Shown here piece by piece: positions 19,478 to 58,261 of a stretch of 64,000 nucleotides of DNA (positions are counted from its first letter, which is position 1; each line of letters opens with the position of its first letter). The translations under genes and the position numbers were made by a program. Origin of the DNA: Fimbriiglobus sp. Its GTDB lineage: Bacteria; Planctomycetota; Planctomycetia; Gemmatales; Gemmataceae. The stretch covers positions 11-64,010 of the forward strand of contig JALOQR010000001.1 in assembly GCA_025459365.1 (NCBI GenBank). The letters run 5' to 3'. Under the pieces are notes generated by a model. It was not told where the DNA came from, ran no database searches, and was given only the letters and a program-made list of their open reading frames with translations.

Positions 19478-19513
19478 GTCAACAACCCCGTGGGGATAGC
19501 TCTCGTGTCTGGT

Positions 19514-25969: not shown

Positions 25970-25975
25970 TTCGGG

Positions 25976-30294: not shown

Positions 30295-30399
30295 AGCAGC
30301 CTCGTTCGGCGAGCGGAGGGCATCAGCCCCCAGGTGAATCAACTCATTGGAAAGTGGTCGCTGGGGGCCAACGCCCTCCAGTCGCCACATCGAGATCAC

Positions 30400-32318: not shown

Positions 32319-32457
32319 GGTGGGACAGGCAGTGTAGCGAAACCGGCCCGACGATCAGATTTTCCCGGCCCACGTCTTGACATGGTCTACTCCGTGCTTA
32401 CCATTCGCAGTGCTGTTATAAATCGTGATACCAAACTCATCCCCAGGAGCCTGGAGT

Positions 32458-33531
32458 ATGCGATCGTCAGTCCGCCGCTCTGGTTTCACTCTGATCGAAC
32501 TGCTGGTGGTGATCGCCATCATCGCCATCCTCATTGGCCTGCTCCTCCCCGCCGTGCAGAAGGTGCGCGAAGCCGCCGCCCGGATGAGCAGCCAGAACAA
32601 CCTGAAGCAACTCGGCCTTGCCCTGCACAACTATGAAAGCGCCCTCGGCCGCCTGCCCGGCATGGCCGCCGCCAGCGGGGCGAACGGCAACTCCTTCGGC
32701 TGGTCGGTCCACGCCCAACTGCTGCCGTACATCGAGCAAGAGAACCTCGGCCGCGGCCTCGACTTCAACCAACCGCTGTTCGTCGGCACCTTCCCCACCC
32801 CGAGCTTCCAGTTGAACCCTCTGGTTCAGCCAATCGCCGCCACCCCGGTGAAGACGTTCCTCTGCCCGGCGGATGGGCAAAGCCCGCTCATCACCACGAA
32901 CAGTGGCGGTGCTACCCATGCCGCCACGAACTACGTCGTCTGCCTCGGGTCGGGCCTCGGCGGGCCGGGGGCCACTTCGCCCAACGGCATCGACACCCGC
33001 TTCCCGTCCGACGGCATGTTCCACTACGGCCCCGGCTACCGCCTGACCGACATCACCGACGGCACCAGCAATACTCTGTTCATGAGCCAGTGCCTGATCG
33101 GGCTGAACATGACGCTGACGAAGTCGGCGGCGGAGTTGACCCCGAACGAACGGGGACGCGTGACCGGAAACGTGCCCGGTCGCGGACTGTACACCGGCAG
33201 CACCGGAGCCAACCCTGGCTTCGGGCCGAGCACCCCCATCGTGGCCTCCGACGTTAGCCTCGTCACCAGCTGGCGGGGCACCCGCGGCGGGTCGTGGGTC
33301 TGGGGCAACGCCACCGCCAACGGATTCACCACCGCTCTCCCGCCGAACTCCCCCACCCCGGACCTGACCGCGCACGGCATGGGCTGGCTCAGCGCCCGCA
33401 GCAACTTCGCCGGAGGTGTGTGCGTGTGCCTCGGCGACGGCTCGGTGCGGTTCATCCGCAACGCCATCAACCTGAACACGTGGCGGGGCATGGCCACCCG
33501 GGCCGGCGGCGAGGTGCTCAACGACTTCTAG
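32458..33531 (+). CDS. DUF1559 protein with prepilin-type N-terminal cleavage/methylation domain
   Basis: [55 protein letters not shown] plus a C-terminal LGDGSVRFI motif. Hallmark planctomycetal family. Confidence 0.9.
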
Positions 33532-37041: not shown

Positions 37042-37299
37042 GAGCCGGTTCCGAGCAGGTTCACGGGAATAGTTCCGGGTCGGAGGCGGATACTTCGGAT
37101 TTTTTCGCCGGTTGCGGGCACTATTCAGTGGGATGCTGGGTACTACAGAGGGGGGTGAGGCGTCGGTATTCTGAACCGGCAACGCCTGTCGCCGGGTGAT
37201 ACGCCCCCTCGTGGGGGGCCTGCCCACGAACCCGACAACGCCCATCGGCTCGCGGCGTTGGTCCGGGTGGGTGACGGAACACCACAACCAAGAAGGGCT

Positions 37300-43933: not shown

Positions 43934-45520
43934 TCAGCGGGGCAGGCCCGCCGGCATCCGTGGGGCGTCGGGCACCCCGGCCGCAGACGGTGGCACCACC
44001 GTCGGGTAGCCGCTCGGCGGCGGCGGCGGCGACGGCGGGGTCGCCCATCCACCCACCGGCGAAGTCGGGTCGAAGTTGGTCGGCGGCAGTGCCGGCGTGT
44101 AGGGTCCACCCACCCCACTCGGCGTCGTGGGTAGCGATGGGATCGGCCCGCCCACCACAGGAGCCACGGGGGGGATGCCAGTCGGCACGGCCGTCGTCGG
44201 CAGCGTCGGCGGGACCACGGCGGGTGTGGTCGTCGGGAAGGTCGCCGTTGTCGCGGGCGGTGGGGCCATTGCCCCGTGTTGAATGCGGCCCTGGGGTTGG
44301 GTCTGTAGTTGGGTCTGGGGTTGGGTCTGGGACCGTTCCGACGCCGGCACGAACCTCTGCGACGCCGGCACGAACTTCTGCGATGCCGGCACATACCCCG
44401 TCGATTGCACCTGCTGACCCTGCGGCGGGTACTGCCACTGGTTCGCCGACCCTGCCGGGGTGGTCGCCTGCACCGGCTGGATCGAGCCGTCCGGCTTCTT
44501 CCCCCACCCCGGCGGCACACTCTCACCGGGCGGTAGAGTGAACGCGGTGGTGGTGATGGTCTGCCCGTTCGGCCCACGGCTCACCGCCTGCGGGCGGTCG
44601 GGGCTGAAGGTCATGGGCGGGGGCAGGTCGGGCAGGCCAATCGGCGGCGTGGGGGGAGCGATGGGTGGCGGGGCCGGGGGTAGCACCGGAGCGACCGGCC
44701 CGCCGGGCACAACCGGGGCCGTAGCGGCAGCCGGCATGGTGGCCGGAGCCAGAACAGGTGTCGGCTTGGGGCCGGTGGCCAAGGCTGCCCCCGGCACCGC
44801 CTGCGGGGTGGTGATGGGGGCACCTAGCCCACCCTTGGCGAGGTCGCGGGCAACGTTCGGCATCCCCTTCATCTCGATTGGGGCCGTCGGCTTGCCCACA
44901 GACTTATCGAGCCACACACTCGGCTGGCTGCCGGGTGGGGTGAAGTCGAGCAGCACCGTCTGCGACGGGCCGTACAGGATCGGTTCCTTGCTCGCATCGG
45001 CATACGGCTTGAGCTGAGTGTTGATGCGGACCTGGGTGACGTCCTTCCAGTGCGTCGGGTACGGCAGGAAGAGGGCGTAGCAGTTGCCGAACCGCTCATC
45101 GCTTGTCCGCATCTTCTTCAAGGTGGTCGCGTCGAAGTGGAACACCTCGGTGACCATCGGCGGCTGGCCCGGCAACCGTGGGGTCATGTCTTCCATCGAC
45201 ACGTACAGATCGCCGGCAGCATCGGTGAAACTGCCGTCGCTGGCCAGGACGAACATCTGCCCGAGGATGCCTGCCCCGAGGACGTTATCCCGGCTCGGAT
45301 CGGGCAAGTACTGCACCTGCGGAGTGAACGCCGGTGTGATCTGGGCGGCTGGCTTACGTGGGAACAGGCGAAGGGGCAGGTGATCCCGCCAGCGAGCGGT
45401 GTGTGTGCCAGCACAACCGATGCCGACGGCCGTCATCAGACACGCGGCAATCAGGCCGCCCCACCGGACCCGCCCCGCCCCCCCCAGGGCACGAGCGACC
45501 CGCGACCGAATCCATTCCAT
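43934..45520 (-). CDS. Lipoprotein with a globular N-terminal region and a long Pro-rich C-terminal region (528 aa)
   Basis: Lipobox-like AVGIGC after a basic N-terminus. About 200 aa are globular, then about 300 aa are P/T/Q/V-rich with micro-repeats. Sits 157 nt downstream of the secretin gene on the same strand. Confidence 0.7.
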   Translation of the reverse strand: MEWIRSRVARALGGAGRVRWGGLIAACLMTAVGIGCAGTHTARWRDHLPLRLFPRKPAAQITPAFTPQVQYLPDPSRDNVLGAGILGQMFVLASDGSFTDAAGDLYVSMEDMTPRLPGQPPMVTEVFHFDATTLKKMRTSDERFGNCYALFLPYPTHWKDVTQVRINTQLKPYADASKEPILYGPSQTVLLDFTPPGSQPSVWLDKSVGKPTAPIEMKGMPNVARDLAKGGLGAPITTPQAVPGAALATGPKPTPVLAPATMPAAATAPVVPGGPVAPVLPPAPPPIAPPTPPIGLPDLPPPMTFSPDRPQAVSRGPNGQTITTTAFTLPPGESVPPGWGKKPDGSIQPVQATTPAGSANQWQYPPQGQQVQSTGYVPASQKFVPASQRFVPASERSQTQPQTQLQTQPQGRIQHGAMAPPPATTATFPTTTPAVVPPTLPTTAVPTGIPPVAPVVGGPIPSLPTTPSGVGGPYTPALPPTNFDPTSPVGGWATPPSPPPPPSGYPTVVPPSAAGVPDAPRMPAGLPR

Positions 45521-45677: not shown

Positions 45678-48600
45678 TCACTTCACCCACGGTTGCTGCG
45701 GAGCGGCCGGCGGCGGCTGTTGCGGCTGTTGCGGTGGCAACACCGGCTGTTGCTGCTGGAAGGCGGCCGGGTTGACTGGCGCCGTCGGCTGGGCCGGGGT
45801 GGTCGCCGGCACGCCCGGCACGTTCGCCGGCGGTTGGTACTGCTGCGGAGCCGGTGCCGGAGCCGGAGTCGCCGATGCCGACCCGTTGCCGAATGCCGGC
45901 GGCGGGGCGTACAGGTCCGGTGCCGGGCCGACCACGCCGCCAGGTCCGGCGGGCCAACCGGTCGTCGGTGGGTAGAGCGGCTGAACCGGGTTGCTCGGCG
46001 GGAGCACGGTGGTGGCTGGGTTGCTGAACGGAGCGGCGAACCCACTGCGACTGATCGGCAGGTAGTTCGGAGCCGGGCCGACGATGTTGTCGACGTTGCA
46101 GTACGGGTCGCCGAGTTTGCCGCGGAGGACGTCCGGGTTCACCCCGCTCACGTTGGCCGCTTCCTTGATGGCCCAGCTCATCTTGCGGGCTTCGTCGGCG
46201 AAGATCCGCCGCATGTCGGCCGGCGTCCGCATGACCCGCGGGGTCATGATGAAGATGACCTCCCGCCGCTGTTGCTGCTGGGTGCGGTAGCGGAACGCCG
46301 CCCCTACCCACGGCAGGTCGCCAAGTACGGGGATCTTGTTCTCGGCCTTCTGATCGCTCCTGCGAATGAGTCCGCCGAGCACCACCGTTTCGCCGTCGGC
46401 CGCCAGCACCGTCGTCTCCACCGTCTGGGTGTTGATGGCCGAGGCGAACACCCCAGGGGCAACGGCGACGTTGGTCGGAGCGGCGTCGGACACCTGCGGC
46501 TCGACCCGCATGAGCACCGAGTTATCCGGCCCAATCCGCGGGGTCACCCGTAGCACGATGCCGATGTCGGCGTACTCGATGCTCTGCTGCACTACACCGA
46601 GGGTGGCGTTGGTGCCGGTGATGAGTGGGAAGCGCTGACCGACCTGGAAGAACCCGGTCTGGTTGTCGGTGAGCATCAAGCTGGGGCGGGAGAGCACATC
46701 CACCCGGCCCTGGGCCTTGAGCGCCCGAATGAGCAGGCTGAACGAGTCGGACGCGGCCGACAGCACCAGCCCGCCCACCCCCGCACCGAGCGTGCTGGCC
46801 CGCCCCACCCCGAGGTTGCCCAGCCCCTGGAACCCGACGAGCCCGGGGGTGACGTTCGTCCCCAGCGGTGGCGTGGCGGTGGTGTTGAAGTTGTATCCCG
46901 GCGTGCCCGACGTGGTGCCAGTCGCCCCGCCGCGGCGGAACAGCACGTCCGACTGCAAGCCGACCTCCACCCCGAACTCCTGCCCGTTCGTCAGGTTCAC
47001 CTCGGCGATGAGCACGTCCACATACACCTGCGGTGGGGCGGCATCGACCGCCTGCAGCAGCCGCAGAATTTCCGGCATCATCTGCGGGGTGGCCGAGATG
47101 AGCAACTGGTTGGTGATCGGTTCCGGGGTGATCTGCACCTGCCGCAGGGCGAGAGGTACGGCCGCGCCCGGCTGGGAGGCCGTGAGCACCCCCGTCACCT
47201 GAGTGTTGATGAACGTCTGGAGGGCGTTGGCCACGTCGGCGGCCGCCGCGTTACGGAGTTTCACCACTTCGGTGGCGTACTGCTGGGTATTCGCCTCTTC
47301 CAACTTGGTGACGATCGCCCGCACCAGGTCGAGGTCGTTCTGACTACCCGCGACGATGACCGAGTTCGTCCGCTGGTCGGCGGTCACTCGCAGGTTGATG
47401 AGCTGCGCCCCGTCGGACGGGTTGCCGCTGAGCGTGAGCAGTGGGCGGGCGGCGGTGGTCGCCGTGCCCGTGCCTAGCCCACCGAGGCCGCCCAGCCCGC
47501 CGAGGCCACCCCCACCGAGGCCGCCGACCCCGGCGTTCGAGGCGAACAGTTGCAGCACCAGGTTCTGCACCAGCACCGCGTCGGCCTTCCGAAGCTGGAA
47601 CACCTGCACATAGCTCTTGGCCGCCGCCACGCCGTCCAACTCGTTGACGAGCGCCTCCACTAGCCCCATCGTCCGTTCGGGTGCGGTGATGATGAGGGCG
47701 TTGATCCGCGGGTCGGACGTGATGTGGACGTCTTCCAGCAGGCCAGACTCGAACACACCCTTGGCGGTGTTGAACTTCAACGCGGTCGTCTTGGTGGTGA
47801 CGCCGGCCGTGCGAGTGAGGGTGTTCAGCCCCCCCGCCCCGCCGAGGCCGCCGGCCCCACCGAAACCACCGGCCCCACCGAAACCGCCGGCTCCACCGAA
47901 CTGTCCGCCACCGCCGGTGCCGAACTGTCCGCCGCCGAGTTGCCCACCGAGGCCACCCGCGCCGATGCTCCCACTCTGAGTGTTGCTCAGGCCCTGCACG
48001 AAGATGTTCGATGTGATCGTCTGGTTGATCACCTGCGCCAGGTCGTCGGAGAAGGCGTTGCGGAGCTTGAACACCTTCACCGTGTTCACCGGCCCTTGCC
48101 CGCCCACGTCGGCGTCGAGCAGTTTGATCAGCCGGGCGATATCGGCCTGGTCGGCCGGGCTGGCCTGCACCAGCACGGCGTTGTTCGACGAGTCGGCCGT
48201 CACCCGGATCTTATCCGAGGTGTCGCCGGGGAAACGGTCGCGGAACAGGTTCAGGATCTGCTGCTGCACGATGCTGGCCGAGGCGTACTTCAGCACGTAC
48301 TGAACGGGCTGGAGAGCTTCCGCCGTACCCAGATCGAACCGCGTGATCTGTTCCTTGACGAAGGCGAGGCTCGACTGTGGCACCGCCAGCAGGATCGAGT
48401 TGAGCCGCGGCAGGGGGTACAGGATGATGTTTCCGATCGTCCCGCCCTGGCCCGCGAACCCGCCGCCACCACCGAACCCACCACCACCGAACCCACCGCC
48501 ACCAAACCCACCCGGCCGTTGTTGGGCCTGCGGGAAGGTGAACGATCCCGGACCCACCTGCAACCGCGAGTAGAGCAGTTGCAGTTCCGCCACCACCACG

Positions 48601-51600
48601 CCCGCGTCCGCCTTGGTCAGCGGTACGATCTCCACCGCCACCTGGATGTCCTTACCGAGGGTGCGTGAGATGATGTTGATGAGGGTCTTGAGCGCTTCCA
48701 GATCCTCTTTCGTCTTCACCCGCAGAGTGAGGGTGCCAAGGGCATCGTTGGCGATGACCGTGGCGTCGTCCGGCGGTTTCTGGAACTGCAGGACCGACGT
48801 ACCGGGCTGCCCTGGGGCCGGCGGGGTTCCCGTTCCGGGCTGAGCCGGTGTGGTCGGCGGCTGCACGGCCTGGACCTGCACGACCGTCGGCGGCAGTGCG
48901 GCCGGCGGGGTGTTGAAGTCCATCCGCGAGAAGGTCACCGTGGTCGGCGGGGTGAATGCCCGTTGCGGGACATTGCTGACCCGCGGGCCAGTGGTGCTGA
49001 TCGGGTAATCATACCCCGGCAGGAGATCGACCTCGGGGTCGAACAGCAGGGGGGCCGAAGGGGCATCCATGCCCAGGTAGTCAAAAGGGCGCTGCCCTCC
49101 TCCGCCGTCTGGGTATATGGCGCTGATGCTCTGGTCGCTCCGCTGGTTACGGCCACCGCCGCGGGTGCCACCGCCGCCCATGCCGCCACCGCGGGTGCCG
49201 CCACCACCCATGCCGCCGCCGCGGGTGCCACCACCACCCATGCCGCCACCGCCGAACCCACGGCCGCCGCCTGGAGCGATCCCGCCGCCGCCCATGCCGC
49301 CGCCGCCGAACCCGCCCATGCCACCGCCGCCGAGCCCACCGGGGAAGCCGGTGCCCCCGCCCAAACCACCGCGGGTGCCGCCGAATCCACCCTGCCCGCC
49401 CATGCCGCCGAACCCACCCATGCCACCCTGGCCGAACCCACCGCCGAGGGTGGTGGTGGTCGGTGCCTTGCCCTGGATGGCCTCGATGAGTTGCTGCACC
49501 TGGCTCGGGGCGATGCCCGTCACCTGGATCACTTCCGTGATCATTTCGCTGGCTTTGGTGTCCTTATCCAGGTCTTCGCACAGTTGCCGGATGTCCTGGT
49601 ACAGCGCCTCGTTGCAGTCGACGATCACCTGGTTGGTGGGGATGTCGTAATCGACGTTCAACGCCGACGGGGTGCTGGCCTGGGGTTGCTGCGGCACGAA
49701 CGGGTTGAACGGCTGAGCGCCGCCGCCGCCCCCGCGACGGCCACCGGTCATGTAGTTGGCGTACACGTTCCGGATGGTCACCACCATGTCCGACGCTTTC
49801 GCGTGCTGGAGGGGAATTCGCCACCGCTGCGACACCCCGCCTTCGGCCTCCCCGCTGTCGATGGCCTTCTTCAGCAGGTCCTTGATGGTCAGCACGTCGA
49901 TCTCGCTGGCCTTCACGATGATCAGCGAGTTGCTGCTCTTTTCGGCGACCACCTTCACCCGCCCGGCTTTCGGGTCGGTCGGTGCCGCCGAGCTGTTCAG
50001 CCCGAGGAGCGATAGCGGGTTGAGCATCGCCCCGAGGCCGCCCCCACGGCCACCGCCACCGCCGCCACCGCCTTGCTGCGGCTGGGCCGGGGCGTTGAAC
50101 ACGTCGTTAATCACCTTGGCCGCTTCTTCCGCCGAGATGTTCTTCAGCCGGATCACCTCGAACCGCTCGGTCGCCTTGTCTCCGCGGGTGTACAGCGACA
50201 TCAGTTCGTAGGCGAGCTGTACGTCCTTCGGGTTGTCGCCGGTGATGACTAGCTTGTTCCCGATGACCGTGATGGTCACGTCGGCCGGCTTGGCCGGATC
50301 GACGAGTTGCGCCCGGACCTGTCGGATGTTCCCCGGCATTTCAGCGCTCATCCGGCTACCAGACGGCGGCGGGCCGCCGGGAGTGCCCCTCGGCTCTTCC
50401 TTCTTCGGCTTGGGCGGCGGGGCGTTCGGGTTCACCACGTCGAACTTCTTGCCCATCTTCGCGGCCATCTCGGCGATGGCCTCCGCCAGCGCTGCCGAGT
50501 TCCCCTGGTTGATGGTCAGGGTGCGGAGTTTCTCGGTGCCCAGGGCGGTGCCGGGGGTCGCCCCGTCGAGCGCCTTCACCAGTTCGACCGCCGCCGCCAC
50601 CTGTTCGGTCGTACCGCGGACCACCAGCCCCGGTTCGCCGTCCACCTTCGGGTCGGCCGTCAAGCCAGCGCCGATGTTCTTCACGATCGTGGCAGCCAGG
50701 GCGGTGAGTGCATCCCCGCTCACGTTCGTGGCGAGGACCCGCGTTTCCAGGGTGCTCTTCGTCTCCGGCGTCTTCAGGAACTTGCTGATCTCGACGTGGT
50801 CCGCGGTGTAGGCGTACACCATGACCTGATCCGTACCCTTGGCCATGGCCGACACGTTCGACCCGAGGTACTCCGGCTTGGCCAGCAGTTGCTTCGCCAA
50901 TGCTTCGGCGGTGCCGCTCACCACCGGGTACGAGTTCCACATCAGTTCGCCAGGGGCGGGGCGGGGCCTGTCGCCTTTGTCGATGTCCTTGAGCAGGTCT
51001 TTGCTGGCGAGGATCTTGTCGGCCGGGCCGGTGATGAACAGCGAGTTCTGCCCGTCGTCGACGGCGATGTTGACGGCCCGGAACCGTTTGGTGTCGGCGG
51101 GTCGTGGGGCACGGGGATCTTGCGGGGGCTGTTGCCCCCACCCGCCGCCACCCCAACCGCCCCCCCAACCGCCGGGCGGGGCCGTTGCGGCGCTGCCGGT
51201 GTTGACGTCGGTGTTTCCGTCCTTGAGCAGGCTACGCAACTGGCTGGCCACGTCGCTGGCCCGCTTGAACTGGCACTTGTAGGAGAGCTGGTCGTTCTTG
51301 TTCTTGACGATCTGGTCGATCACGTGCAGCACCGACCGCACGTTGTCGGCCTTGTCGATGAGCAGCAGTTGATCGGTGCCGAAGGTGTTCACCTGACCGA
51401 ACGGCGACAGGCTTTTCTTCACCTGCGGGAGCACTTCTTCCGCGTTCAGCGTCACGAGCGGAACGTACACCTGCACCACTTCCGTCTTGCCACGGGAGGG
51501 GAGGTCTTCGAGCCGCACGTTCGGCACGTGGATGCGGGGAATCGGCTCGCTCGCCGGTACGGTGGCGAACGATTCCGTCTTCCGGAGGATGACGTAGTTA

Positions 51601-51974
51601 TCCTTTTCCAGCACTTCGTTCAGCAGGTCGATGAGCTGGCCGAGGGTGTACTTCTTGTTCGGCCGCAGCGTGATGGTGCCGGTGGGGGTGTCCTTGCTCA
51701 GGTAGAGCAGGCCACTCTCTTTCTCCAGCCACTCGAACACCTGCTTCCATTCCGTCTTGTCGAACTTGGCTTCGTACAGCTTCTCGCCCGGCTTGGGAGC
51801 ATCCGTCTTGGGGCCGTCGGCCTTGACCACCGGCGGGGTGGTCGGCGGCGGAACGGCGGGCGTTTGTGCGGTGACCGACCCACCGAGGCCAGCGGCCAGC
51901 ACCGCCGGCAGCCACCGACGGAGAGTCCGCCACGACTTGTGCGTGCGAACAGAATCCGTGTGTTGCGGAGCCAT
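45678..51974 (-). CDS. Giant secretin-family outer-membrane channel protein (2098 aa) with about 12-13 Secretin_N-like modules and glycine-rich inserts
   Basis: Signal peptide. C-terminal secretin domain (VLSRPSLMLTDNQTGFFQVGQRFP...VETTVLAADGETVVLGGLI...IPVLGDLPWVGAAFRY). Many upstream modules of type V..L..A.A..V...L..LF....[V/I]TAD.RTN.[V/L]IV.[A/G]......[I/L]..L[I/V]..LD. Confidence 0.9.
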   Translation of the reverse strand: MAPQHTDSVRTHKSWRTLRRWLPAVLAAGLGGSVTAQTPAVPPPTTPPVVKADGPKTDAPKPGEKLYEAKFDKTEWKQVFEWLEKESGLLYLSKDTPTGTITLRPNKKYTLGQLIDLLNEVLEKDNYVILRKTESFATVPASEPIPRIHVPNVRLEDLPSRGKTEVVQVYVPLVTLNAEEVLPQVKKSLSPFGQVNTFGTDQLLLIDKADNVRSVLHVIDQIVKNKNDQLSYKCQFKRASDVASQLRSLLKDGNTDVNTGSAATAPPGGWGGGWGGGGWGQQPPQDPRAPRPADTKRFRAVNIAVDDGQNSLFITGPADKILASKDLLKDIDKGDRPRPAPGELMWNSYPVVSGTAEALAKQLLAKPEYLGSNVSAMAKGTDQVMVYAYTADHVEISKFLKTPETKSTLETRVLATNVSGDALTALAATIVKNIGAGLTADPKVDGEPGLVVRGTTEQVAAAVELVKALDGATPGTALGTEKLRTLTINQGNSAALAEAIAEMAAKMGKKFDVVNPNAPPPKPKKEEPRGTPGGPPPSGSRMSAEMPGNIRQVRAQLVDPAKPADVTITVIGNKLVITGDNPKDVQLAYELMSLYTRGDKATERFEVIRLKNISAEEAAKVINDVFNAPAQPQQGGGGGGGGRGGGLGAMLNPLSLLGLNSSAAPTDPKAGRVKVVAEKSSNSLIIVKASEIDVLTIKDLLKKAIDSGEAEGGVSQRWRIPLQHAKASDMVVTIRNVYANYMTGGRRGGGGGAQPFNPFVPQQPQASTPSALNVDYDIPTNQVIVDCNEALYQDIRQLCEDLDKDTKASEMITEVIQVTGIAPSQVQQLIEAIQGKAPTTTTLGGGFGQGGMGGFGGMGGQGGFGGTRGGLGGGTGFPGGLGGGGMGGFGGGGMGGGGIAPGGGRGFGGGGMGGGGTRGGGMGGGGTRGGGMGGGGTRGGGRNQRSDQSISAIYPDGGGGQRPFDYLGMDAPSAPLLFDPEVDLLPGYDYPISTTGPRVSNVPQRAFTPPTTVTFSRMDFNTPPAALPPTVVQVQAVQPPTTPAQPGTGTPPAPGQPGTSVLQFQKPPDDATVIANDALGTLTLRVKTKEDLEALKTLINIISRTLGKDIQVAVEIVPLTKADAGVVVAELQLLYSRLQVGPGSFTFPQAQQRPGGFGGGGFGGGGFGGGGGFAGQGGTIGNIILYPLPRLNSILLAVPQSSLAFVKEQITRFDLGTAEALQPVQYVLKYASASIVQQQILNLFRDRFPGDTSDKIRVTADSSNNAVLVQASPADQADIARLIKLLDADVGGQGPVNTVKVFKLRNAFSDDLAQVINQTITSNIFVQGLSNTQSGSIGAGGLGGQLGGGQFGTGGGGQFGGAGGFGGAGGFGGAGGLGGAGGLNTLTRTAGVTTKTTALKFNTAKGVFESGLLEDVHITSDPRINALIITAPERTMGLVEALVNELDGVAAAKSYVQVFQLRKADAVLVQNLVLQLFASNAGVGGLGGGGLGGLGGLGGLGTGTATTAARPLLTLSGNPSDGAQLINLRVTADQRTNSVIVAGSQNDLDLVRAIVTKLEEANTQQYATEVVKLRNAAAADVANALQTFINTQVTGVLTASQPGAAVPLALRQVQITPEPITNQLLISATPQMMPEILRLLQAVDAAPPQVYVDVLIAEVNLTNGQEFGVEVGLQSDVLFRRGGATGTTSGTPGYNFNTTATPPLGTNVTPGLVGFQGLGNLGVGRASTLGAGVGGLVLSAASDSFSLLIRALKAQGRVDVLSRPSLMLTDNQTGFFQVGQRFPLITGTNATLGVVQQSIEYADIGIVLRVTPRIGPDNSVLMRVEPQVSDAAPTNVAVAPGVFASAINTQTVETTVLAADGETVVLGGLIRRSDQKAENKIPVLGDLPWVGAAFRYRTQQQQRREVIFIMTPRVMRTPADMRRIFADEARKMSWAIKEAANVSGVNPDVLRGKLGDPYCNVDNIVGPAPNYLPISRSGFAAPFSNPATTVLPPSNPVQPLYPPTTGWPAGPGGVVGPAPDLYAPPPAFGNGSASATPAPAPAPQQYQPPANVPGVPATTPAQPTAPVNPAAFQQQQPVLPPQQPQQPPPAAPQQPWVK
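49152..49448 (-). repeat. Coding low-complexity tract: about 100 aa of GGFG/GGMG/GLGG, including three tandem 30-nt units (GMGGGGTRGG)
   Basis: Secretin residues 843-941. The 30-nt units at 49155-49244 each end in cat on the plus strand (Met codon on the minus strand). Confidence 0.9.
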
Positions 51975-52254: not shown

Positions 52255-55200
52255 CTACCGCTTCGCCGTGCGGCGGATCAGTTCGAGCAGGGCGTCGAGG
52301 TGGTTTAGGTCGCCCTTCTCCAGAATCCGGGCCACGCGGCCGTTGAGTCGGTCGAAGTCGGCGGAGGTGAGTTCCTTCGCCGTCAGCACCACCACCGGCA
52401 CACGGTGGCCGGGGTACCGCCGGTTCAGCTCGTCCAGGAAGCCGAACCCATCGAGCACCGGCATCATCAGGTCGAGCAGCACCAGGCCCGGCTTGTGTTC
52501 GTCGAAGGCCGCCAGCCCCTGTTCGCCGTTCGTCGCTTCGCGGATCGCCCATCCTTCTTTTTCCAGGTGCCGGCGGATGATCTCGCGGTTCTGCGGATCG
52601 TCGTCGATCACCAGCACGCCATCGGAGCGGCCAACGAGATACCGCCGCAGGATGGCCCCGAGTCGCTGCCAGTCGATCGGCTTGGTGAGGTACTCGGTGG
52701 CCCCGAGGGCGAACCCACGGCCGCGGTCGTCGACGATGGTGAGCATCACCACGGGGATGTCGGCGGTGGCCGGGTCGCCTTTGAGTTGACCGAGGACGGT
52801 CCAGCCGTCGGCACCGGGCATGGTCACATCGAGGGTGATGAGGCACGGCCGTTCATCGCGGGCCAGTTTCAGCCCGTCGTCGCCGGTGCCGGCGAGCAGC
52901 ACGCGGAAGCCTTCCTTACCGAGGAAGCGCTGCATCAGTTCGCGCACCATCGGGTCGTCGTCCACCACGAGCACGGTGCGGCCATCGGCGGGCTGAGGAG
53001 GCGGGGTGTCGGCGGCGGGCAGGGCAGCCGGTGGGGGAGACGGCGGGCGAGTCTGGGCGACGGCCTCCACCACCGCCGGCAGGGTCACGACGAACTCGGT
53101 GCCGACCCCCTCCTGACTGGTGACGCGGATCGGCTGGCCGCCCATGAGGTCGTTGAAGCTCTGGGTAATGGCCAGACCGAGGCCCGTACCGCCAGCCCCG
53201 CGAGTGGTGCCGCTATCGGCCTGGTAGAACCGCTGGAACAGCCGGCCGACTTGCTCGGGAGTCATGCCGCGGCCAGTGTCCGACACGGTGAACCGGACCC
53301 AGTCGCGGCCCGACTCGGTGAACCGCCGCACCCGCAGATCGACCCGCCCGGCCTGGGTGAACTTGAAGGCGTTGGAGAGCAGGTTCAGGAGCATCTGCCG
53401 CACGCGGCGGCCGTCGGCGGTCATCTGACCCAGATCGGGCGGTGCATCAACGACGAACTCGTTGGCGTTCTTCGCCGCCAGCGGGCCGACGAGCGTTTTC
53501 ACGTCGCCCACCAGTTCGACGAGCGGGATCGTCCCGATCGAAAGCTCCATCTTCCCGGCCGAGATTTTGGCCATGTCGAGGATGTCGTTGATCAGGTCGA
53601 GCAGGTGCTTGGCAGCGGACAGAATCTTGTTCAGGTCGGGTTCAATCGCCTCGGCTCCGAGGTCGGCCGCCTCTTCCTTCAGGGCTTCGGTGAACCCGAT
53701 GATGATGTGCAGCGGTTGCCGGAGTTCGTGGCTCATGGTGGCGACGAACGTATCCTTTGCCCGCACCGCCGCTTCGGCCTGCCGCAGGGCCACCTCCAGC
53801 TTGGCGTTCGCCTCTTCCAACTCGGCCGTCCGCTGCTTCACCCGCGTGTCGAGGTCTTCGTTCAACTTGCGGATGCGGTCTTCGGCTTCTCGCCGCTGAG
53901 TGATGTCGCGCAGGACGCACACCATCACGACCCGGTCACGCAGGGGCACCGGCTTCAGGTTCATTTCCAGCCAGAAGTCGGAACCATCGGGCCGCATGCC
54001 CTGCACGGCTTCCAGAGTGCGGCTACCCGATGCCGCGCCGGCCACGGTGTCGCTCTCCTGGGCCGCTGGCAGATCGTTCGGATTTCGCAACAGGCTGGTG
54101 ACGGCCCGCCCGATCAGCCCTTCCGGAGTGGTGCCGAACATCCGCCCGGCGGCCTTGTTCGCCTCTTCGATCACTCCGCCGGAACTGGTGACGAGTACCC
54201 CCTCGCCGGCCGCTCGCAGGATGGTCTCGTAACGGGCGGCGCGATCGCGCAACTGGCGGTCGCGGTCTTGCACGTGGCCGACGAGCGACTGCAGGGTGCG
54301 GGCGAGTTCGCCGACTTCGTAGGGGCCGCCGAGGGGGAGTGGCTTCGGGTTCGGGTCGTCGGTGTCGAGCCGCGACGCCGCCCGTGCCAGCCGGTTGACC
54401 GAGTACGTCAGCGTCATCACCAGAGCGATGCCCAACACTCCCGACACCAACAACCCCGGCACCACCCACCGCAGAAACACATCGTGGAAGCGTTCGTCGA
54501 TGTCCTGGCGGAGTTCTTCGGTCGAAGCCGCCACCGCCAGCCAGCCTGGATCATCGACGTCGTTCAAATCCACCCGCAGTGGGGTGAGTTGCCCCTGGTA
54601 CGTCTGGCACTCCAGTGGGGTCGACCAGCGTACCGCCGCCCGCGGGTCGCCCGTCTCCGCCCGCCACCACGCCCCCACCACTTCGCACGCCGCCTTCAAG
54701 CCATCGGGCGTCGGGTGCGACACCTCGACATACCCAAACGCCGGGCTGGCCTCGCCCACCCGGAGCTTCGGGTCGGCGGCCATTGCCTCCCACATCCGCT
54801 GATTCAGCCGGAGTGCTGCTGCCGCCGCCTTCTCCTCCCCCAGTGCTTCGCGTAGTGTCCGGCTGAAGTAACCCTTTCGATACAGGCAGGCCAACTCCGC
54901 CGCCGGCACCGCCGTCAGGCGGGCACCGCCGGATTGCACCGCCTGCGCCATCCGCCGCCACTTCGCTTCGGGTTCCAGGGTGGTGTCGAACCATCCACGC
55001 CCCTCAAAGGAGGGGTATTTCCACTGCACCACCTCGGGCAGTGTGCGGGCTGGGTCGGCGGCTTTGGTCGGGTGGACCAGCACCCGACCGGCCGGATCGG
55101 TGACGATGTAGTAGTGCCGTGGCGAGATCCGCTGGCGGTTATTCACGTACCGGGTGAAGTCGAGGACCACCGCGACAATGTGATCCCCCCGCCGCTCGGA

Positions 55201-55962
55201 GGTCGCCAGGATCGCCCGGCCCGGCTCATTCCCGGCCGGTGGCTGAAAGTGCAACCCAGAGCGATTGAACTCCCGACCGAGCCGACGGCCCACGTCGGTC
55301 AGGCTGGCGACCAGCGCCGCACGCCGGCCCGGATCGGACGGCAACGGCGCCGACGACGCCTCGACCACCGCCTCGACCCCGTTGAAGCGAAAGGCGTACA
55401 CACCGACCGCCGTCCCGTGCAGGTACTTCCGCCGCGCTTCGAGGGGAGTATCGGGGTCGTCCCACACGCGATCGGCGGGCAGGTTCAGCCCGTCGGCGAC
55501 CCCCGTGACAACCTGAGCGAGAGACCGCACGGCCGGCTGATCGTTCACCCGTTTCCGCACATCGCGGGCGAAGTACGCCATATCTTCGCGGAACTCATTC
55601 ACCCGCAGGTTGGCCTCGTCGCTCAGGTCGATCGTCTCGTGATCGACGAGCACTTCGCGGCCGGAGTCGAGCAACCGCTGCGAGGTGAACAAGAGCGGGC
55701 CGAGAACGACGAACATGCCGAGCAAGGCGAACTGCACCCACAGCCGCCAGCGATGTGGGCGAAGTAGGCGATCGCGGAAAGTGGCGTTCGGCGGCAGAGG
55801 GGGAAGCACGGCGACGGCCCAGTGCGGACGCGGGATACCGTCAGGATAGGCCCGCCCACCGCCGTCGGTCTCAACATTATCAAGATGATCACCCTGCGCC
55901 CCATACCCCCCCGGCGGGATGGTCCCCGCCGCCGCGCCCCGCCGCCCGTGCGAACGTCCCAT
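52255..55962 (-). CDS. Hybrid sensor histidine kinase with large extracytoplasmic sensor, HAMP, PAS, HisKA, HATPase_c and two receiver domains
   Basis: H-box FVATMSHELRQPLH, N-box LLNLLSNAFKFT, G-boxes DTGRGM and GGTGLGLAI. Two REC domains (VLVVDDDP...TLDVTMPGADG and VLVIDDDP...LLDLMMPVLDG). Start set to the ATG at 55962 to avoid overlapping the divergent gene; the exact start is uncertain. Confidence 0.85.
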   Translation of the reverse strand: MGRSHGRRGAAAGTIPPGGYGAQGDHLDNVETDGGGRAYPDGIPRPHWAVAVLPPLPPNATFRDRLLRPHRWRLWVQFALLGMFVVLGPLLFTSQRLLDSGREVLVDHETIDLSDEANLRVNEFREDMAYFARDVRKRVNDQPAVRSLAQVVTGVADGLNLPADRVWDDPDTPLEARRKYLHGTAVGVYAFRFNGVEAVVEASSAPLPSDPGRRAALVASLTDVGRRLGREFNRSGLHFQPPAGNEPGRAILATSERRGDHIVAVVLDFTRYVNNRQRISPRHYYIVTDPAGRVLVHPTKAADPARTLPEVVQWKYPSFEGRGWFDTTLEPEAKWRRMAQAVQSGGARLTAVPAAELACLYRKGYFSRTLREALGEEKAAAAALRLNQRMWEAMAADPKLRVGEASPAFGYVEVSHPTPDGLKAACEVVGAWWRAETGDPRAAVRWSTPLECQTYQGQLTPLRVDLNDVDDPGWLAVAASTEELRQDIDERFHDVFLRWVVPGLLVSGVLGIALVMTLTYSVNRLARAASRLDTDDPNPKPLPLGGPYEVGELARTLQSLVGHVQDRDRQLRDRAARYETILRAAGEGVLVTSSGGVIEEANKAAGRMFGTTPEGLIGRAVTSLLRNPNDLPAAQESDTVAGAASGSRTLEAVQGMRPDGSDFWLEMNLKPVPLRDRVVMVCVLRDITQRREAEDRIRKLNEDLDTRVKQRTAELEEANAKLEVALRQAEAAVRAKDTFVATMSHELRQPLHIIIGFTEALKEEAADLGAEAIEPDLNKILSAAKHLLDLINDILDMAKISAGKMELSIGTIPLVELVGDVKTLVGPLAAKNANEFVVDAPPDLGQMTADGRRVRQMLLNLLSNAFKFTQAGRVDLRVRRFTESGRDWVRFTVSDTGRGMTPEQVGRLFQRFYQADSGTTRGAGGTGLGLAITQSFNDLMGGQPIRVTSQEGVGTEFVVTLPAVVEAVAQTRPPSPPPAALPAADTPPPQPADGRTVLVVDDDPMVRELMQRFLGKEGFRVLLAGTGDDGLKLARDERPCLITLDVTMPGADGWTVLGQLKGDPATADIPVVMLTIVDDRGRGFALGATEYLTKPIDWQRLGAILRRYLVGRSDGVLVIDDDPQNREIIRRHLEKEGWAIREATNGEQGLAAFDEHKPGLVLLDLMMPVLDGFGFLDELNRRYPGHRVPVVVLTAKELTSADFDRLNGRVARILEKGDLNHLDALLELIRRTAKR

Positions 55963-56152
55963 GCCGGCCAACGACTTGCGGCGAATCCCCGGAATCCGTG
56001 TCCAGTTCCGGCCGCGGACGGCAATTGGAAGGTACGCCCACTCCGGCCGCAGGCCGACGCGCGCACGTCCCCGTGAGCGCACGCCCAGTCTCCGGTTAAA
56101 ATCGTGCGCACGGCAAACAATTCGCTTGACACGATCGAATCCCGTCGGTCTA

Positions 56153-58261
56153 ATGTTCGACGGTAGCACGACCGTCGGCCACCGGATCCACTTCCCCCCA
56201 CGGGCACGGAACCACGACCATGAGCCTCAAAATTCGCCCCCCCATCGGACATTCGGCCGTTTGAGCCTGGAGCAGTTGGAGGCCCGCGAGGTGCCGGCCT
56301 TCTTCGCCGTCGGGTTGCTCAGCCCGGCCACCGGGGATGCGGGCGACAGTGCCGCCACCTTCACTGGCGGCATCGCCCTCAACCCGGCCCTCCCGACGCA
56401 CAACGACCGGGTGATCGTCGACGCCCCGAGCGCGACCGCCGCCATTCATGCCGCCCTGGTGAACACCGTCACCGCCACCGTCGGCGGGCAGTCGGTCGGG
56501 TACACCCCCGACGACGCCACCGTCGGCACCTCCCCCACCACCCACCGGCCGTTCATCATCACCCCCGGCACCGCCGCCGGGCAGTTCGTGCTGCGGCTGG
56601 AAGACCTGGCCGGCATGCCCGGCCAGACGCCCGACTGGGACTACAACGACCGCACCTGGGGGGTCGCCGTCGACCCGCTCTTCGACCCGCTGGTCGTCGC
56701 CCCGCCGAACCCGCCGGCCACCGGGGCCGATCCGGTCGACCCCGGCGCGGTGACGGTCGTCCCCGTCGACCCGGCCGCCCCGCCGGTGCCGCCGGTGCCC
56801 GCCACCCCGTCGCAGCCGGGGCCGTACCTGCCCCCGCCGACCGACCCGCCGCCGCCCACCGGCACCGTCCACGGGTGGGCGTGGAACGACGCGAACGCCG
56901 ACGGGGTGATGCAGTCGACCGAGGGGAAACTGAACGCGGTGGGGGTGTGGCTGTACGCGGCGGCGGGCGGGAGTTACGTCGCCCAGACGTGGACGAACGA
57001 CGCCGGCGAGTACCAGTTCACCGGCGTCGGGTTGGGCGACTACCGGGTGACGTTCAAGGCCCCGGCGCCGGCCGCGTTCACCCTCTACCGCCAAGGAACC
57101 AACCCGCAACTCGACAGCGACGTGGTGACGGCCACGACGAGCGGGTACGGGAACACCCCGGCGGTGAGCGTCACCGCCGCCAACCTGACACTGTGGGACA
57201 TCTCCGCCGGCTTCATCCTTGGAGCCGACCCGAAGCCGACGACGATCAAACTCTCCGTCGCCGGGCTGGACGACAAGGACAAGGGGAAAGCCCCCGGGAA
57301 GAAGGCCCACATCAACGACAACTTCGACGAGGGGCAGAAGACGATGCAGGCTTTGGTGAGCGACAACCTGCCCGACCCCGGCACCGGCGAACACCAGATC
57401 AAGGCCGGCGACCCCGACCTCGTGCCGGCCACCCTGAACATGACGTCGGGGGTGACGGACTGGTGGATGCTCGACTGGACCATCGGCCCCAACGTGAAGG
57501 TGTGGTACAAGGGGTGGGTCGGCCCCAACGCCGGCAAGTGGGTGGAGGCCAACGACATGGAGTTCGGGAAGATCGCCGTGCCCGCGACGATCGACCTCAT
57601 GGTCGAAGGGATGGACGTCGGGGCCGGGACGGTGAAGGTGGAGTTGGTGGTCAAGAAAGGCAATCCCGGGGTGGCCGACGAGGCCGCGTTCACCGTCTAC
57701 ACCGGCCTCCGACTGACCGGCACCAAGGCCGCCGACGCCGTGGGGCAGTTGGAAAACGCCACCGGCTGGACGCTCAACAAGAACGCCGCCGGCGACATCT
57801 GGCGGACCGGCGGGGCGCTGAACCCGGAGCAGTGGCGGAAGGACGCCCAAGCCGCCACGAAGCCGATCTTCGAAAATGAGAAGGTGACCTCCATCGCGGC
57901 CGAGAACAAGAAGGAGATTCAGATCGGTAATTGGGACCTGAAGGCACTTGACCCCAACGACATCTCGGTGTTCTACACCGCCGACGAGCGATGGGGGGCG
58001 GGTGCGATCACCCACGAGATTGTCGAGCAGTACCACGGCCAAGTGCTGGGTAAGAATTACAACCAGGCACACGCGGCTGCGATCGTCGTGGAGTCCAAGA
58101 TCGTCGCCGGCGGCGGCACTCGGACGGACACTCCCAAGCGGATTCCTGGCACAAACAAGATCGAGCTGACGCTAGAATTTCAAAACGGCATCATCGCCAC
58201 CCTGGTGCTCGACCTTGATCGCGCCGTCAACCCGACGAACGTAAACTTCCGTCGCCCCTGA
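56153..58261 (+). CDS. Surface/adhesin-like protein with N-terminal LSLEQLEAREVPA motif, DUF4114-like and SdrD-B-like domains
   Basis: RLEDLAGMPGQTPDWDYNDRTWGV fits the DUF4114 ..EDL....D.DYND signature. HGWAWNDANADGVMQSTEGKLNAVGVWLY...WTNDAGEYQFTGVGLGDYRV fits the SdrD B-like fold. A Pro-rich linker follows; about 430 C-terminal aa are unassigned. The start is uncertain (see findings). Confidence 0.7.
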   Translation: MFDGSTTVGHRIHFPPRARNHDHEPQNSPPHRTFGRLSLEQLEAREVPAFFAVGLLSPATGDAGDSAATFTGGIALNPALPTHNDRVIVDAPSATAAIHAALVNTVTATVGGQSVGYTPDDATVGTSPTTHRPFIITPGTAAGQFVLRLEDLAGMPGQTPDWDYNDRTWGVAVDPLFDPLVVAPPNPPATGADPVDPGAVTVVPVDPAAPPVPPVPATPSQPGPYLPPPTDPPPPTGTVHGWAWNDANADGVMQSTEGKLNAVGVWLYAAAGGSYVAQTWTNDAGEYQFTGVGLGDYRVTFKAPAPAAFTLYRQGTNPQLDSDVVTATTSGYGNTPAVSVTAANLTLWDISAGFILGADPKPTTIKLSVAGLDDKDKGKAPGKKAHINDNFDEGQKTMQALVSDNLPDPGTGEHQIKAGDPDLVPATLNMTSGVTDWWMLDWTIGPNVKVWYKGWVGPNAGKWVEANDMEFGKIAVPATIDLMVEGMDVGAGTVKVELVVKKGNPGVADEAAFTVYTGLRLTGTKAADAVGQLENATGWTLNKNAAGDIWRTGGALNPEQWRKDAQAATKPIFENEKVTSIAAENKKEIQIGNWDLKALDPNDISVFYTADERWGAGAITHEIVEQYHGQVLGKNYNQAHAAAIVVESKIVAGGGTRTDTPKRIPGTNKIELTLEFQNGIIATLVLDLDRAVNPTNVNFRRP

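Follow-up and report, generated by a model that had tools for sequence, protein, structure and literature searches.

The secretin-like reading frame of 2098 codons at nt 45678..51974 (minus strand, as are all features of this gene given below) raises the question of whether its product stands alone at the core of an envelope-spanning conduit not described before, as the initial annotation had proposed, or is an outsized component of a known machine. The window referred to throughout is the whole 64-kb stretch of DNA that was analysed. The frame opens with ATG, its GC3 of 0.86 is in line with the coding sequence of the window, and the orthologues have the same N-terminus (MAPQ..WRTLRRWLPAVLAAGLG), which indicates that the start codon is correct. 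An assembly artefact behind so repeat-rich a frame is unlikely, as the Gly tracts recur at equal positions in 49 independent orthologues and their DNA consists of short, imperfect repeats only. The Pfam domain count gives Secretin_N in 8 separate stretches (E 3e-76) and Secretin at aa 1751-1916 (E 1e-46). The GspD equivalog TIGR02517 (NCBIfam) is matched over aa 1439-1924 with 443 bits (cutoff 351); the PilQ, SctC and MshL models all stay under their cutoffs (PilQ subfamily, 200 versus 284), and the model of the Akkermansia T4P secretin Amuc_1098 is matched weakly. In the PDB the highest-ranking relatives by sequence are T2SS GspD/PulD throughout (E 5e-47 to 4e-28), with PilQ (1e-24), InvG (7e-13) and pIV (2e-11) ranking lower.

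The domain plan runs from a putative signal peptide through N0 and 13 domains of Secretin_N type (m1-m13) to the secretin barrel and a tail rich in P and Q, which bears out, by Pfam, hhalign and AlphaFold2 (AF2), the architecture first read from this single frame; of the proposed 12-13 N-modules the many-module stack stands, and the exact count is N0 plus 13, i.e. 14 periplasmic domains within the N-terminal 1650 residues. The signal-peptide-like region (aa 1-36, nt 51867..51974; a basic n-region, the hydrophobic LPAVLAAGLGGSV and TAQ) was recognized by reading the sequence and is conserved in orthologues. The AF2 model of aa 55-1110 (pLDDT 80-94 in ordered parts) contains N0 (β-α-β-α-β-β) and eight β-α-β-β-α domains, m1-m8, and its best Foldseek matches are PulD and the N0-N1-N2 structures of GspD/XcpQ. 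N0 itself (aa 64-141, nt 51552..51785; pLDDT about 90) matches the N0 of ETEC GspD (4jtm) with a TM of 0.81 normalised to the target. Profile-profile comparison with hhalign interlinks m2, m6, m7 and m9-m13 at 88-98% probability. Thus m2 (aa 228-334, nt 50973..51293, with insert I1), m6 (aa 602-707, nt 49854..50171, with I2) and m7 (aa 714-804, nt 49563..49835, with I3) are identified by hhalign and AF2 alike. The β-α-β-β-α fold is also predicted for m1 (aa 162-224, nt 51303..51491; pLDDT 85-93, weak by hhalign), m3 (aa 343-403, nt 50766..50948; hhalign 96% to m10) and m4 (aa 408-472, nt 50559..50753; hhalign 72-86%); m5 (aa 481-597, nt 50184..50534) is recognized from its AF2 fold only and goes undetected by hhalign. 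The eighth module, m8 (aa 810-1105, nt 48660..49547), is split by the 232-aa insert I4, with AF2 placing its β-α at aa 812-833, its β-β-α at aa 1062-1109, and disorder in between. Hhalign further delineates m9 (aa 1109-1215, nt 48330..48650, with I5; 90-98% to m2, m6, m7 and m10-m13), m10 (aa 1221-1291, nt 48102..48314), m11 (aa 1296-1448, nt 47631..48089, with I6) and m12 (aa 1453-1560, nt 47295..47618, with I7), the last inside the TIGR02517 match. The N3 equivalent adjoining the barrel is m13 (aa 1566-1646, nt 47037..47279), which holds the best-scoring Secretin_N stretch of the Pfam scan (1568-1649). It is followed by a canonical secretin barrel as the C-terminal domain (aa 1647-1925, nt 46200..47036; PF00263 at aa 1751-1916, PDB GspD alignments to aa 1924), and then by a poorly conserved tail (aa 1950-2098, nt 45681..46127; P 27%). 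The view that known secretins have 2-4 N-domains understated their diversity, as Thermus PilQ, 350 Å long, spans a wide periplasm with six N-rings (PMC5745081) and offers a precedent for the initial idea of a ring stack that bridges a wide periplasm.

Nine N-domains, rather than the seven counted at first, carry a disordered insert, all at one topological site between helix 1 and strand 2; in m1-m8 the AF2 models place every insert there with pLDDT < 50. Seven of the nine are Gly-rich, and the tracts quoted initially are indeed found at aa 268-280, 635-648, 744-752, 1155-1173, 1363-1379 and 1484-1501, the longest being a GGFG/GGMG tract of roughly 100 aa at 843-945. The insert of m5 (aa 515-562, nt 50289..50432; AF2 and composition) is Pro-rich, not Gly-rich, and I4 has a Pro-rich half. 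The Gly-rich series runs from I1 (aa 251-296, nt 51087..51224; GGWGGGWGGGGWG, pLDDT < 50, position conserved) through I2 (aa 627-669, nt 49968..50096; G8RGGGLG...NPLSLLG) and I3 (aa 741-770, nt 49665..49754; GGRRGGGGG..FNPF), both delimited from orthologues and AF2, to I4a and, as delimited from orthologues, I5 (aa 1139-1179, nt 48438..48560; GGFGGGGFGGGGFGGGGGF), I6 (aa 1326-1394, nt 47793..47999; GGLGG..GGFGGAGG) and I7 (aa 1479-1509, nt 47448..47540; GGLGGGGLGGLGGLGGLG). I4 is composite: I4a (aa 837-955, nt 49110..49466), a GGFG/GGMG/TRGGG tract, is 56% Gly and has Gly >= 30% in 98% of orthologues; I4b (aa 956-985, nt 49020..49109) is a linear motif, RPFDYxGMDAPSAPLLFDPE, inside the disordered insert, recognizable in 13/13 orthologues inspected (P0045 and P0047 being the most divergent); and I4c (aa 986-1068, nt 48771..49019) is Pro-rich and poorly conserved. 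Together the inserts amount to 540 residues per protomer (G 43%, Q 10%, F 6%, D+E+K 1.1%). Length and insert positions are both conserved in the 49 orthologues, which are 1950-2400 aa long at 30-69% identity and share the 13-domain plan, N0 plus 13 domains being invariant across all Gemmatales copies. The giant size and Gly tracts are specific to Gemmatales, whereas T2SS secretins of other Planctomycetota have 950-1400 aa and nearly all are without such tracts; some relatives carry about 40 N-domains, again without them.

The apparent orphanhood holds within the window, as first noted: in Pfam scans of the 64 kb GspE/F, PilMNOP, a pseudopilin operon and T3SS and Tad genes are all missing, a tblastn search that took a reference gsp operon as query revealed no gspE-M genes, and the sole related gene is a DUF1559/N_methyl gene at nt 32425-33531. 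Among the orthologue contexts examined, the three nearest (L001, L002 and L005) also have the secretin detached from gsp genes, and the genomes of the window, L001 and L002 are not among the best 120 GspK matches. The lack of partner genes in the window and the detached copies favour a conduit independent of T2SS, T4P and T3SS, but orthologues at other loci close gspE-F-G-H-I-J-K-L-M operons as their last large gene (L003, L004, L006 and L007), and with L088 these loci share the order GspE(MshEN+T2SSE)-GspF-GspG-minor pseudopilins-GspK(T2SSK)-L-like-M-like-secretin. Matches of the L-like and M-like proteins, to GspL/PilM and GspM, are weak; no GspC homologue was identified in these operons, and PilT and PilN/O/P are absent from them. 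Of 54 Planctomycetota genome loci that extend 5 kb or more beyond gspK, at least 39 have a secretin following gspK-L-M. The attached orthologues align colinearly to the window secretin over aa 14-1959 at 43-46% identity (the closest, L035, at 46%), above the 40% of a detached Urbifossiella copy. In a Gemmata MAG the reciprocal half of a detached secretin is seen, gspE-M genes that lead into pheS with the secretin missing. Moreover, N0, the customary docking module for an inner-membrane platform, is retained and conserved among the orthologues. A new kind of conduit was therefore rejected on the gsp operons, a setting of the orthologues that the initial annotation had itself named as fatal to its proposal, on the TIGR02517 score and on the PDB relatives, and its independence from known systems is scarcely credible. 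The gene probably encodes the outer-membrane secretin, a GspD orthologue, of a Gemmatales type II secretion system, an assignment made less certain by the unreliable discrimination of T2SS from T4P outside Proteobacteria (PMC4793230).

That same uncertainty leaves some room for the gsp-like machine to be a fibre-extruding, T4P-like apparatus that has its giant secretin as the outer portion of a crateriform structure, an unlikely reading; equally improbably, it would extrude the roughly 12-nm fibres, and perhaps take up macromolecules, instead of secreting proteins. Crateriform structures are outer-membrane complexes with a 'press-stud-like' link to the cytoplasmic membrane and pili-like fibres; the studies consulted do not report what they are composed of (PMC5394234; PMC12673574). 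Such a link would be supplied by a secretin tube seated on an inner-membrane platform, and the PilM-type matches of the L-like protein and the weak Amuc_1098 match point the same way. However, the secretin exceeds the GspD cutoff and falls short of that of PilQ, and the operons lack the Pil genes and encode GspK (T2SSK), a T2SS hallmark. Crateriform structures are present in Planctopirus-type lineages too, yet the secretins there have 1200-1400 aa and no Gly tracts, so neither giant size nor Gly tracts are needed for these structures, and a tie of the secretin to them is speculation. We regard it as very unlikely that the secretin is an outer-membrane nozzle through which exopolysaccharide or slime passes, alone or besides secreted proteins: myxobacteria and cyanobacteria do require T2SS secretins to secrete slime (Myxococcus GspD, cyanobacterial PilQ; PMC12475490), and at L001, the locus of the closest relative, the genes immediately upstream include a Wzz/tyrosine-kinase-type co-polymerase and a Glycos_transf_4 member, but this neighbourhood is not conserved in the window (where a hybrid histidine kinase is upstream), L002 or L005 (with unrelated genes), and what is conserved is the linkage with gsp genes.

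As a T2SS GspD, the protein would be exported by Sec and multimerize in the outer membrane, perhaps with the aid, in assembly or targeting, of a pilotin-like lipoprotein. A candidate pilotin or accessory protein is the conserved 528-aa lipoprotein encoded downstream (nt 43934..45520, minus strand; lipobox-like VGIGC, Pro-rich tail), a homologue of which always follows the secretin at the loci compared, in L001-L006 and, on the plus strand, in L007. It has no Pfam, NCBIfam or PDB sequence match; its conserved all-β domain (aa 40-215, nt 44876..45403, minus strand; 343 representative clusters) is a confidently predicted β-sandwich (AF2; pLDDT 88, pTM 0.79) for which Foldseek gave weak Ig-V-like matches only (E >= 1e-3) and no convincing PDB match. 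The 14 N-domains may form coaxial rings, one upon another, and so build up a periplasmic tube of roughly 50-75 nm, with N0 docking onto a GspL/M/E/F platform encoded elsewhere in the genome and the pseudopilus (GspG-K) pushing folded substrates through. Stacking, stoichiometry and insert orientation are here inferred, and one ring per domain with a length equal to periplasm width is a simple picture made doubtful by relatives, because some of these have about 40 N-domains.

The inserts would most likely reach into the vestibule at one level after another, as compliant seals against the entry of periplasmic contents into the long resting tube, and would yield to passing substrate by moving aside or threading between the rings. 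The claim that no described secretin gates in this manner was overstated, since periplasmic gates built from N-domain loops have already been described. The insert site corresponds to the variable N3 loop that in closed InvG was thought to account for the periplasmic constriction (PMC6155069), which makes a lumen-filling, FG-like Gly/aromatic meshwork plausible; a disordered N3 loop of pIV, whose place in the fold may differ, is directed to the pore centre (PMC8563730). The full predicted disorder of the inserts agrees with this. Their strict D/E/K depletion and G/Q/F enrichment are usual for cohesive low-complexity phases rather than defined interfaces. A less likely alternative is that the inserts point away from the lumen or are placed between the rings, where they would stabilize the long stack as glue between rings or protomers, as elastic elements or as peptidoglycan spacers. 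Solved GspDs are 15-mers, and in a 15-mer all 540 residues would bring the lumen to about 450-750 g/L (G-rich cores alone, 220-370 g/L), very crowded for a channel passing folded proteins, which argues that not all of them fit inside. The I4b motif points to a specific binding partner, not a bulk phase, the relatives with about 40 domains imply that long stacks need no Gly gate, and in needle-bound, open InvG the corresponding loop does not enter the lumen but leaves through the gap between N3 and N1, where it contributes contacts between protomers (PMC6155069). The 2098-aa secretin is probably an unusual and apparently undescribed variant of a known machine, the T2SS.

The secretin gene (45678..51974, reverse strand) is a single ATG-initiated reading frame encoding 2098 aa, exactly as the initial annotation had it, and its third-position GC content of 0.86 matches that of the real genes in this window of 65–70% GC. 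Pfam matches the secretin domain (PF00263) at aa 1751–1916 (E 1e-46), which places the protein in the secretin superfamily, and Secretin_N in eight separate stretches (E 3e-76). Behind a signal peptide, read by eye at the N-terminus, lie an N0 domain of β-α-β-α-β-β fold in the AF2 model (aa 64–141), 13 N-domains delimited by profile–profile comparison and AF2 (m1–m13, aa 162–1646), the secretin barrel assigned with Pfam (aa 1647–1925) and a tail that is P/Q-rich in composition. Gly makes up 13.5% of the whole protein, and Pro 27% of the tail beyond aa 1950. The protein was also aligned to 20 solved secretins. The architecture originally read from the sequence is borne out by Pfam, AF2, Foldseek and profile–profile comparison, and every Gly tract quoted at the time is found at its residues in the translated sequence.

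As MAFFT alignment of the modules of a single protein was uninformative, profiles built from sub-alignments of 49 orthologues were compared instead. The modules m2, m6, m7 and m9–m13 are linked at 88–98% probability, in agreement with the eight Pfam stretches, and m3 and m4 link at 72–96%; m1, m5 and m8 are weak by hhalign (probability ≤76%) and were accepted as N-domains because AF2 showed the fold. The AF2 model of aa 55–1110, computed with 48 orthologues (mean pLDDT 66, ordered parts 80–94), exhibits N0 followed by eight consecutive β-α-β-β-α domains, m1–m8. Foldseek against the PDB returned PulD (6hcg, E 1e-10), the N0-N1-N2 structures of ETEC GspD (3ezj) and XcpQ, and the GspD N0 domain 4jtm at a TM of 0.81. 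Single-module HMMs recover N0 plus 13 N-domains (13–14 matches) in every complete Gemmatales copy examined. A database search gave 58 relatives, ∼50 of them 1950–2400 aa long and 30–69% identical, from many independent assemblies that include the complete genome of Urbifossiella limnaea (CP036273). In the 49-sequence alignment, the folded modules are 40–77% identical to the window protein per 25-residue block, and the low-complexity segments lie at the same places. As the Gly tracts recur across orthologues and are encoded by only short, imperfect DNA repeats (period 9–30 nt, 65–100% matches), an assembly artefact is unlikely, and the orthologue alignment and DNA repeat check exclude a fused ORF.

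The window protein scores 443.3 bits against the NCBIfam GspD equivalog model TIGR02517, above the cutoff of 351.35. The models for PilQ (TIGR02515, 200 against a cutoff of 284), SctC (157 against 238) and MshL (139 against 250) all score under their own cutoffs, and these assignments were rejected for that reason. The best solved sequence relatives are all T2SS secretins, namely PulD (5e-47), E. coli and ETEC GspD, ExeD, EpsD and XcpQ, behind which rank PilQ (1e-24) and then InvG and pIV. The AMIN domain characteristic of T4P PilQ gave no Pfam match, and pilNOP genes are absent from the window and from the orthologue operons. The protein shares with GspD, PulD and XcpQ (TIGR02517; 6hcg, 5wq7, 5zdh, 3ezj) the barrel, an N0 followed by β-α-β-β-α Secretin_N domains of N1–N3 type, a variable disordered loop between N-domain helix 1 and strand 2, a lipoprotein partner gene close by and, in its orthologues, the last position in a gspE–M operon. 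In contrast to these, it measures 2098 aa rather than ∼650 aa, has 13 N-domains instead of 3 and inserts in nine of them (seven Gly-rich), and ends in a long, poorly conserved P/Q-rich tail in which an S-domain is not recognizable. Its gene is detached in the window genome, no GspC-like gene was recognized among the five operons examined (L003, L004, L006, L007 and L088), and its partner lipoprotein is a predicted β-sandwich lacking a convincing PDB match, known pilotin structures included.

Of all the sequence evidence for a T2SS identity, genomic context is decisive. At these five loci, the last large gene of the operon codes for the giant secretin, and the order of the products is GspE (MshEN+T2SSE), GspF, GspG, three minor pseudopilins (GspH/I/J-type), GspK (T2SSK), a 510–590-aa protein with weak GspL/PilM matches, a 370–560-aa protein with a weak GspM match, and the secretin. 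A GspK-profile scan of one genome per species yielded 80 loci, distributed over Gemmataceae, Fimbriiglobus, Gemmata, Zavarzinella, Pirellulaceae, Planctomycetaceae, Mariniblastus, Sedimentisphaerales, Phycisphaerae and Omnitrophota. A secretin follows gspK-L-M in at least 39 of the 54 loci that have ≥5 kb downstream; the figure is a lower bound because the ORF and HMM screen overlooked, probably through frameshifts or Ns, the secretin of Gemmata sp. IIL30 (L016), one more attached copy that was found by tblastn. Secretins attached to such operons are colinear with the window protein (46% identity over aa 14–1959 at L035, 44% at L025 and 43% at L003) and score higher than the detached Urbifossiella copy (40% identity); thus, attached and detached genes are orthologues. 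Four loci with Gemmataceae-type gsp genes (L013, L025, L029 and L040), the first three with secretins of 2000–2200 aa, come from MAGs titled Alcaligenaceae or Bacteroidales, and these titles are probably binning or labelling errors.

Within the window, Pfam analysis of 31 ORFs and tblastn with all eleven proteins of the L006 operon revealed no gsp genes besides the secretin and its downstream partner, in accord with the absence of partner genes recorded before. The three closest contexts examined are likewise detached (L001, at 67–69% identity, L005 and L002). The reciprocal half of the window's detached secretin is seen in the MAG of Gemmata sp. JTS-AC2 (L020; JBGSLF010000215.1, 4500–19000), where the genes downstream of gspE-F-G-H-I-J-K-L-M are pheS, an ECF sigma factor gene and a DUF1559 gene, and the operon region holds no secretin. 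The best 120 of 1229 GspK-profile matches include no sequence from the genome of Urbifossiella or from that of L001. We conclude from these comparisons that the window protein is an orthologue of the T2SS secretin GspD that in this lineage is apparently detached from its operon; GspD is the closest family, and sequence, fold and, in the orthologues only, context fit it. The colinear orthologues in gsp operons contradict the earlier view of an orphan, which had itself been made to depend on orthologues lying outside T2SS operons. The observations of the initial annotation therefore stand, whereas its interpretation holds only in part.

The other genes of the window include one for a 1304-aa hybrid histidine kinase (52255–56169, reverse strand; HAMP-PAS-HisKA-HATPase and two receiver domains), which shares the strand of the secretin gene at a distance of 280 bp upstream and is not kept beside the secretin orthologues. 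The sole pilin-like gene (32425–33531, forward strand) encodes a DUF1559 (SBP_bac_10) protein that bears a methylation motif at its N-terminus and belongs to an expanded planctomycetal pseudopilin-like family. A 690-aa protein (35356–37428, reverse strand) combines sigma-70 regions 2 and 4 of ECF type with a weak match to STN (secretin/TonB N-terminus) in its C-terminal part, and its ORF as called overlaps the start of a Ser/Thr-kinase-WD40 gene (37258–41025, forward strand). The reverse strand at 11000–30400 holds an ordinary respiratory cluster: genes for cytochrome c oxidase subunits I–III, SCO1 and haem O/A synthases, together with NrfD, 4Fe-4S and multihaem cytochrome genes similar to those of alternative complex III.

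Directly after the secretin lies a gene (43934–45520, reverse strand) for a 528-aa lipoprotein composed of a conserved all-β domain and a long Pro-rich tail. In each of the seven orthologue contexts examined, a homologue adjoins the secretin: it overlaps the secretin stop codon in L002, L003, L004 and L006, and in L007 a homologous ORF follows on the same strand. The window copy shares 47% identity with its L001 counterpart (E 2e-121) and 26% with the Urbifossiella one (E 2e-11). All copies compared have in common a domain of ∼130 residues (LPDP..G..GQMF...DERFG.CYALFLP), and all except Urbifossiella exhibit a lipobox-like G-C motif past a hydrophobic segment. A full HMMER scan of 1.84 billion representatives placed the domain in 343 clusters. 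Some of these clusters are proteins of 800–1500 aa (P0281, P0294, P0300 and P0319) that carry the domain in their C-terminal half or close to the C-terminus and have no Pfam secretin match. No family match was found in Pfam or NCBIfam, and no sequence match in the PDB. AF2 gives a confident all-β domain (pLDDT 88, pTM 0.79), for which Foldseek returned no match at E < 1e-3 and only weak immunoglobulin-V-like similarity (TM 0.3–0.45); the domain is accordingly described as a predicted β-sandwich, with no finer fold assigned. Its position and lipoprotein character make the protein a candidate pilotin or accessory factor.

The inserts of the secretin fall at one site in nine N-domains and total 540 aa, or 26% of the protein, in loops of 30–232 aa. 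Seven of the nine are Gly-rich, and the m5 insert and the second half of I4, the insert of m8, are Pro-rich. In the AF2 model, the inserts of m2, m5, m6, m7 and m8 all lie between helix 1 and strand 2 with pLDDT < 50. Over the 49 orthologues, the insert cores contain 43% G, 10% Q, 8% A, 6% P, 6% F, 5% T, 5% R and 4% L, with D (0.8%), E (0.2%) and K (0.1%) together at 1.1%. Position and composition are kept among orthologues, whereas sequence is not: the hydrophobic residue may be W, F, Y, L or M, some copies carry L, M or Q where others have F/W, and in some distant orthologues the loops are Q-rich instead. The 232-aa I4 contains a short linear motif, RPFDYxGMDAPSAPLLFDPE (aa 956–985; 49020–49109, reverse strand), that is recognizable in 13 of the 13 orthologues inspected and most divergent in the two most distant (P0045 and P0047); such conservation marks it as a candidate docking motif for some partner. 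At the end of most orthologues, past the variable P-rich tail, alignment of the orthologues (A3) shows a conserved KEGxxWxVFGR, which may be a terminal recognition signal; the window protein (45681–45700) and its closest relatives end in ..PWVK or ..WNK instead.

From what is established for secretins, the protein would be exported by Sec and multimerize (all solved GspD entries listed have 15 chains), with its N-domains stacked as rings and N0 docked to an inner-membrane platform. The closest analogue for such an elongated stack is the 757-aa PilQ of Thermus thermophilus (N0–N5), which likewise has extra N-domains, spans a wide periplasm and forms an additional periplasmic gate from N-domain loops (PMC5745081, PMC4463427). 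It differs in being a T4P/DNA-uptake secretin of six rings without low-complexity Gly inserts. Its six rings plus barrel measure 350 Å (PMC5745081), and the barrel plus N3 of pIV measures 96 Å (PMC8563730). From these lengths, 3–5 nm per ring and a tube of ∼49–75 nm may be estimated for the window protein.

Known loops of secretin N-domains suggest what the inserts may do. The variable N3 loop of InvG (residues 217–267), which occupies the same site as the inserts, is disordered in most structures, has been proposed to account for the periplasmic constriction of the closed state, and threads out between rings when the needle occupies the lumen (PMC6155069). pIV also has a disordered N3 loop, directed at the pore centre (PMC8563730). 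In view of this behaviour, we favour, by analogy, inserts that would face the lumen and act as displaceable seals, one level after another along an extended vestibule. In the T3SS secretin InvG, a single domain carries a single loop of ∼50 aa that is not Gly-rich; the window protein has nine along the stack. If lumenal, the G-rich cores alone would reach an estimated 220–370 g/L, a density comparable to that of FG hydrogels, whereas all inserts together would reach 450–750 g/L. The latter density is difficult to square with folded proteins moving through the channel, unless a large share of the inserts is expelled or sits outside the lumen. The same crowding argues for inserts that serve as glue or spacer between rings, and this alternative to lumenal seals therefore keeps substantial weight.

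The inserts resemble FG-nucleoporins of GLFG type in composition alone. The two have in common disorder, an abundance of G, Q and F and a near absence of D, E and K, but there is no homology, the inserts have no GLFG motif, and their aromatics are low (F 6%), vary and are lost in some lineages. The most far-reaching proposal would have the Gemmatales T2SS secretin, as a 50–75 nm periplasmic tube whose lumen is occupied at no fewer than seven levels by a disordered phase from 15 protomers, cohesive, uncharged and rich in Gly, Gln and Phe (an FG-nucleoporin-like plug), form the core of crateriform structures together with the β-sandwich lipoprotein; we regard this full combination as improbable. 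The simpler suggestion made at the outset, that the secretin is linked to crateriform structures, is possible but speculative. These outer-membrane complexes are connected to the cytoplasmic membrane and carry fibres (PMC5394234, PMC12673574), and their composition is not reported by Boedeker et al. (PMC5394234) or in a 2025 review (PMC12673574).

Comparison across lineages separates length in general from the features of Gemmatales. A classical GspD has ∼330 aa before the barrel. Gemmatales copies have 1540–1880 aa there and 2–8 Gly-rich tracts (≥50% G over 15 aa), and those of Pirellulales, Planctomycetales, Phycisphaerae, Sedimentisphaerales and Omnitrophota have 745–1035 aa and, with two minor exceptions, no such tracts. 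All planctomycetal T2SS secretins are therefore long, and, as judged from these sequences, the doubled length and the Gly loops are specific to Gemmatales. Four further proteins (P0050, P0051, P0054 and P0055) of 3200–3600 aa with ∼28–40 N-domain matches would be the longest secretins by far; P0050 (L088:10001–20635) terminates a gspE–M operon. They resemble the window protein in their related gsp operon type and N-domain multiplication and have no Gly-rich tracts (G 5–8%). Their existence indicates that N-domain multiplication is a wider trend, and renders uncertain a simple reading in which length equals periplasm width.

Secretins are among the best-studied bacterial channels. The longest solved secretin that we found is the 901-residue PilQ of 3jc8. 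Full-text searches brought up no account of giant secretins in planctomycetes, of the Gly loops or of the partner lipoprotein, and no secretin is mentioned in the main text of the Gemmata ‘nuclear pore-like’ proteomics paper. A 2016 survey listed very few T2SS outside Proteobacteria (PMC4793230), and planctomycetal T2SS are hardly treated in the searchable literature. The plan of N0 plus 13 N-domains, fixed across an order, is more than twice the longest characterized N-domain stack, the six rings of Thermus PilQ, and provides a natural setting in which to examine the adaptation of secretion machines to a periplasm that is wide and variable. Low-complexity loops at a known gate-associated site hint at a mode of gating or sealing that has yet to be studied in secretins, and the unannotated lipoprotein family, with its 343 representative clusters, is a candidate new class of pilotin. 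Genetic tools are available (PMC5394234, PMC11958385), and the secretin and lipoprotein pair is a concrete candidate component of the crateriform structures that is open to genetic tests.
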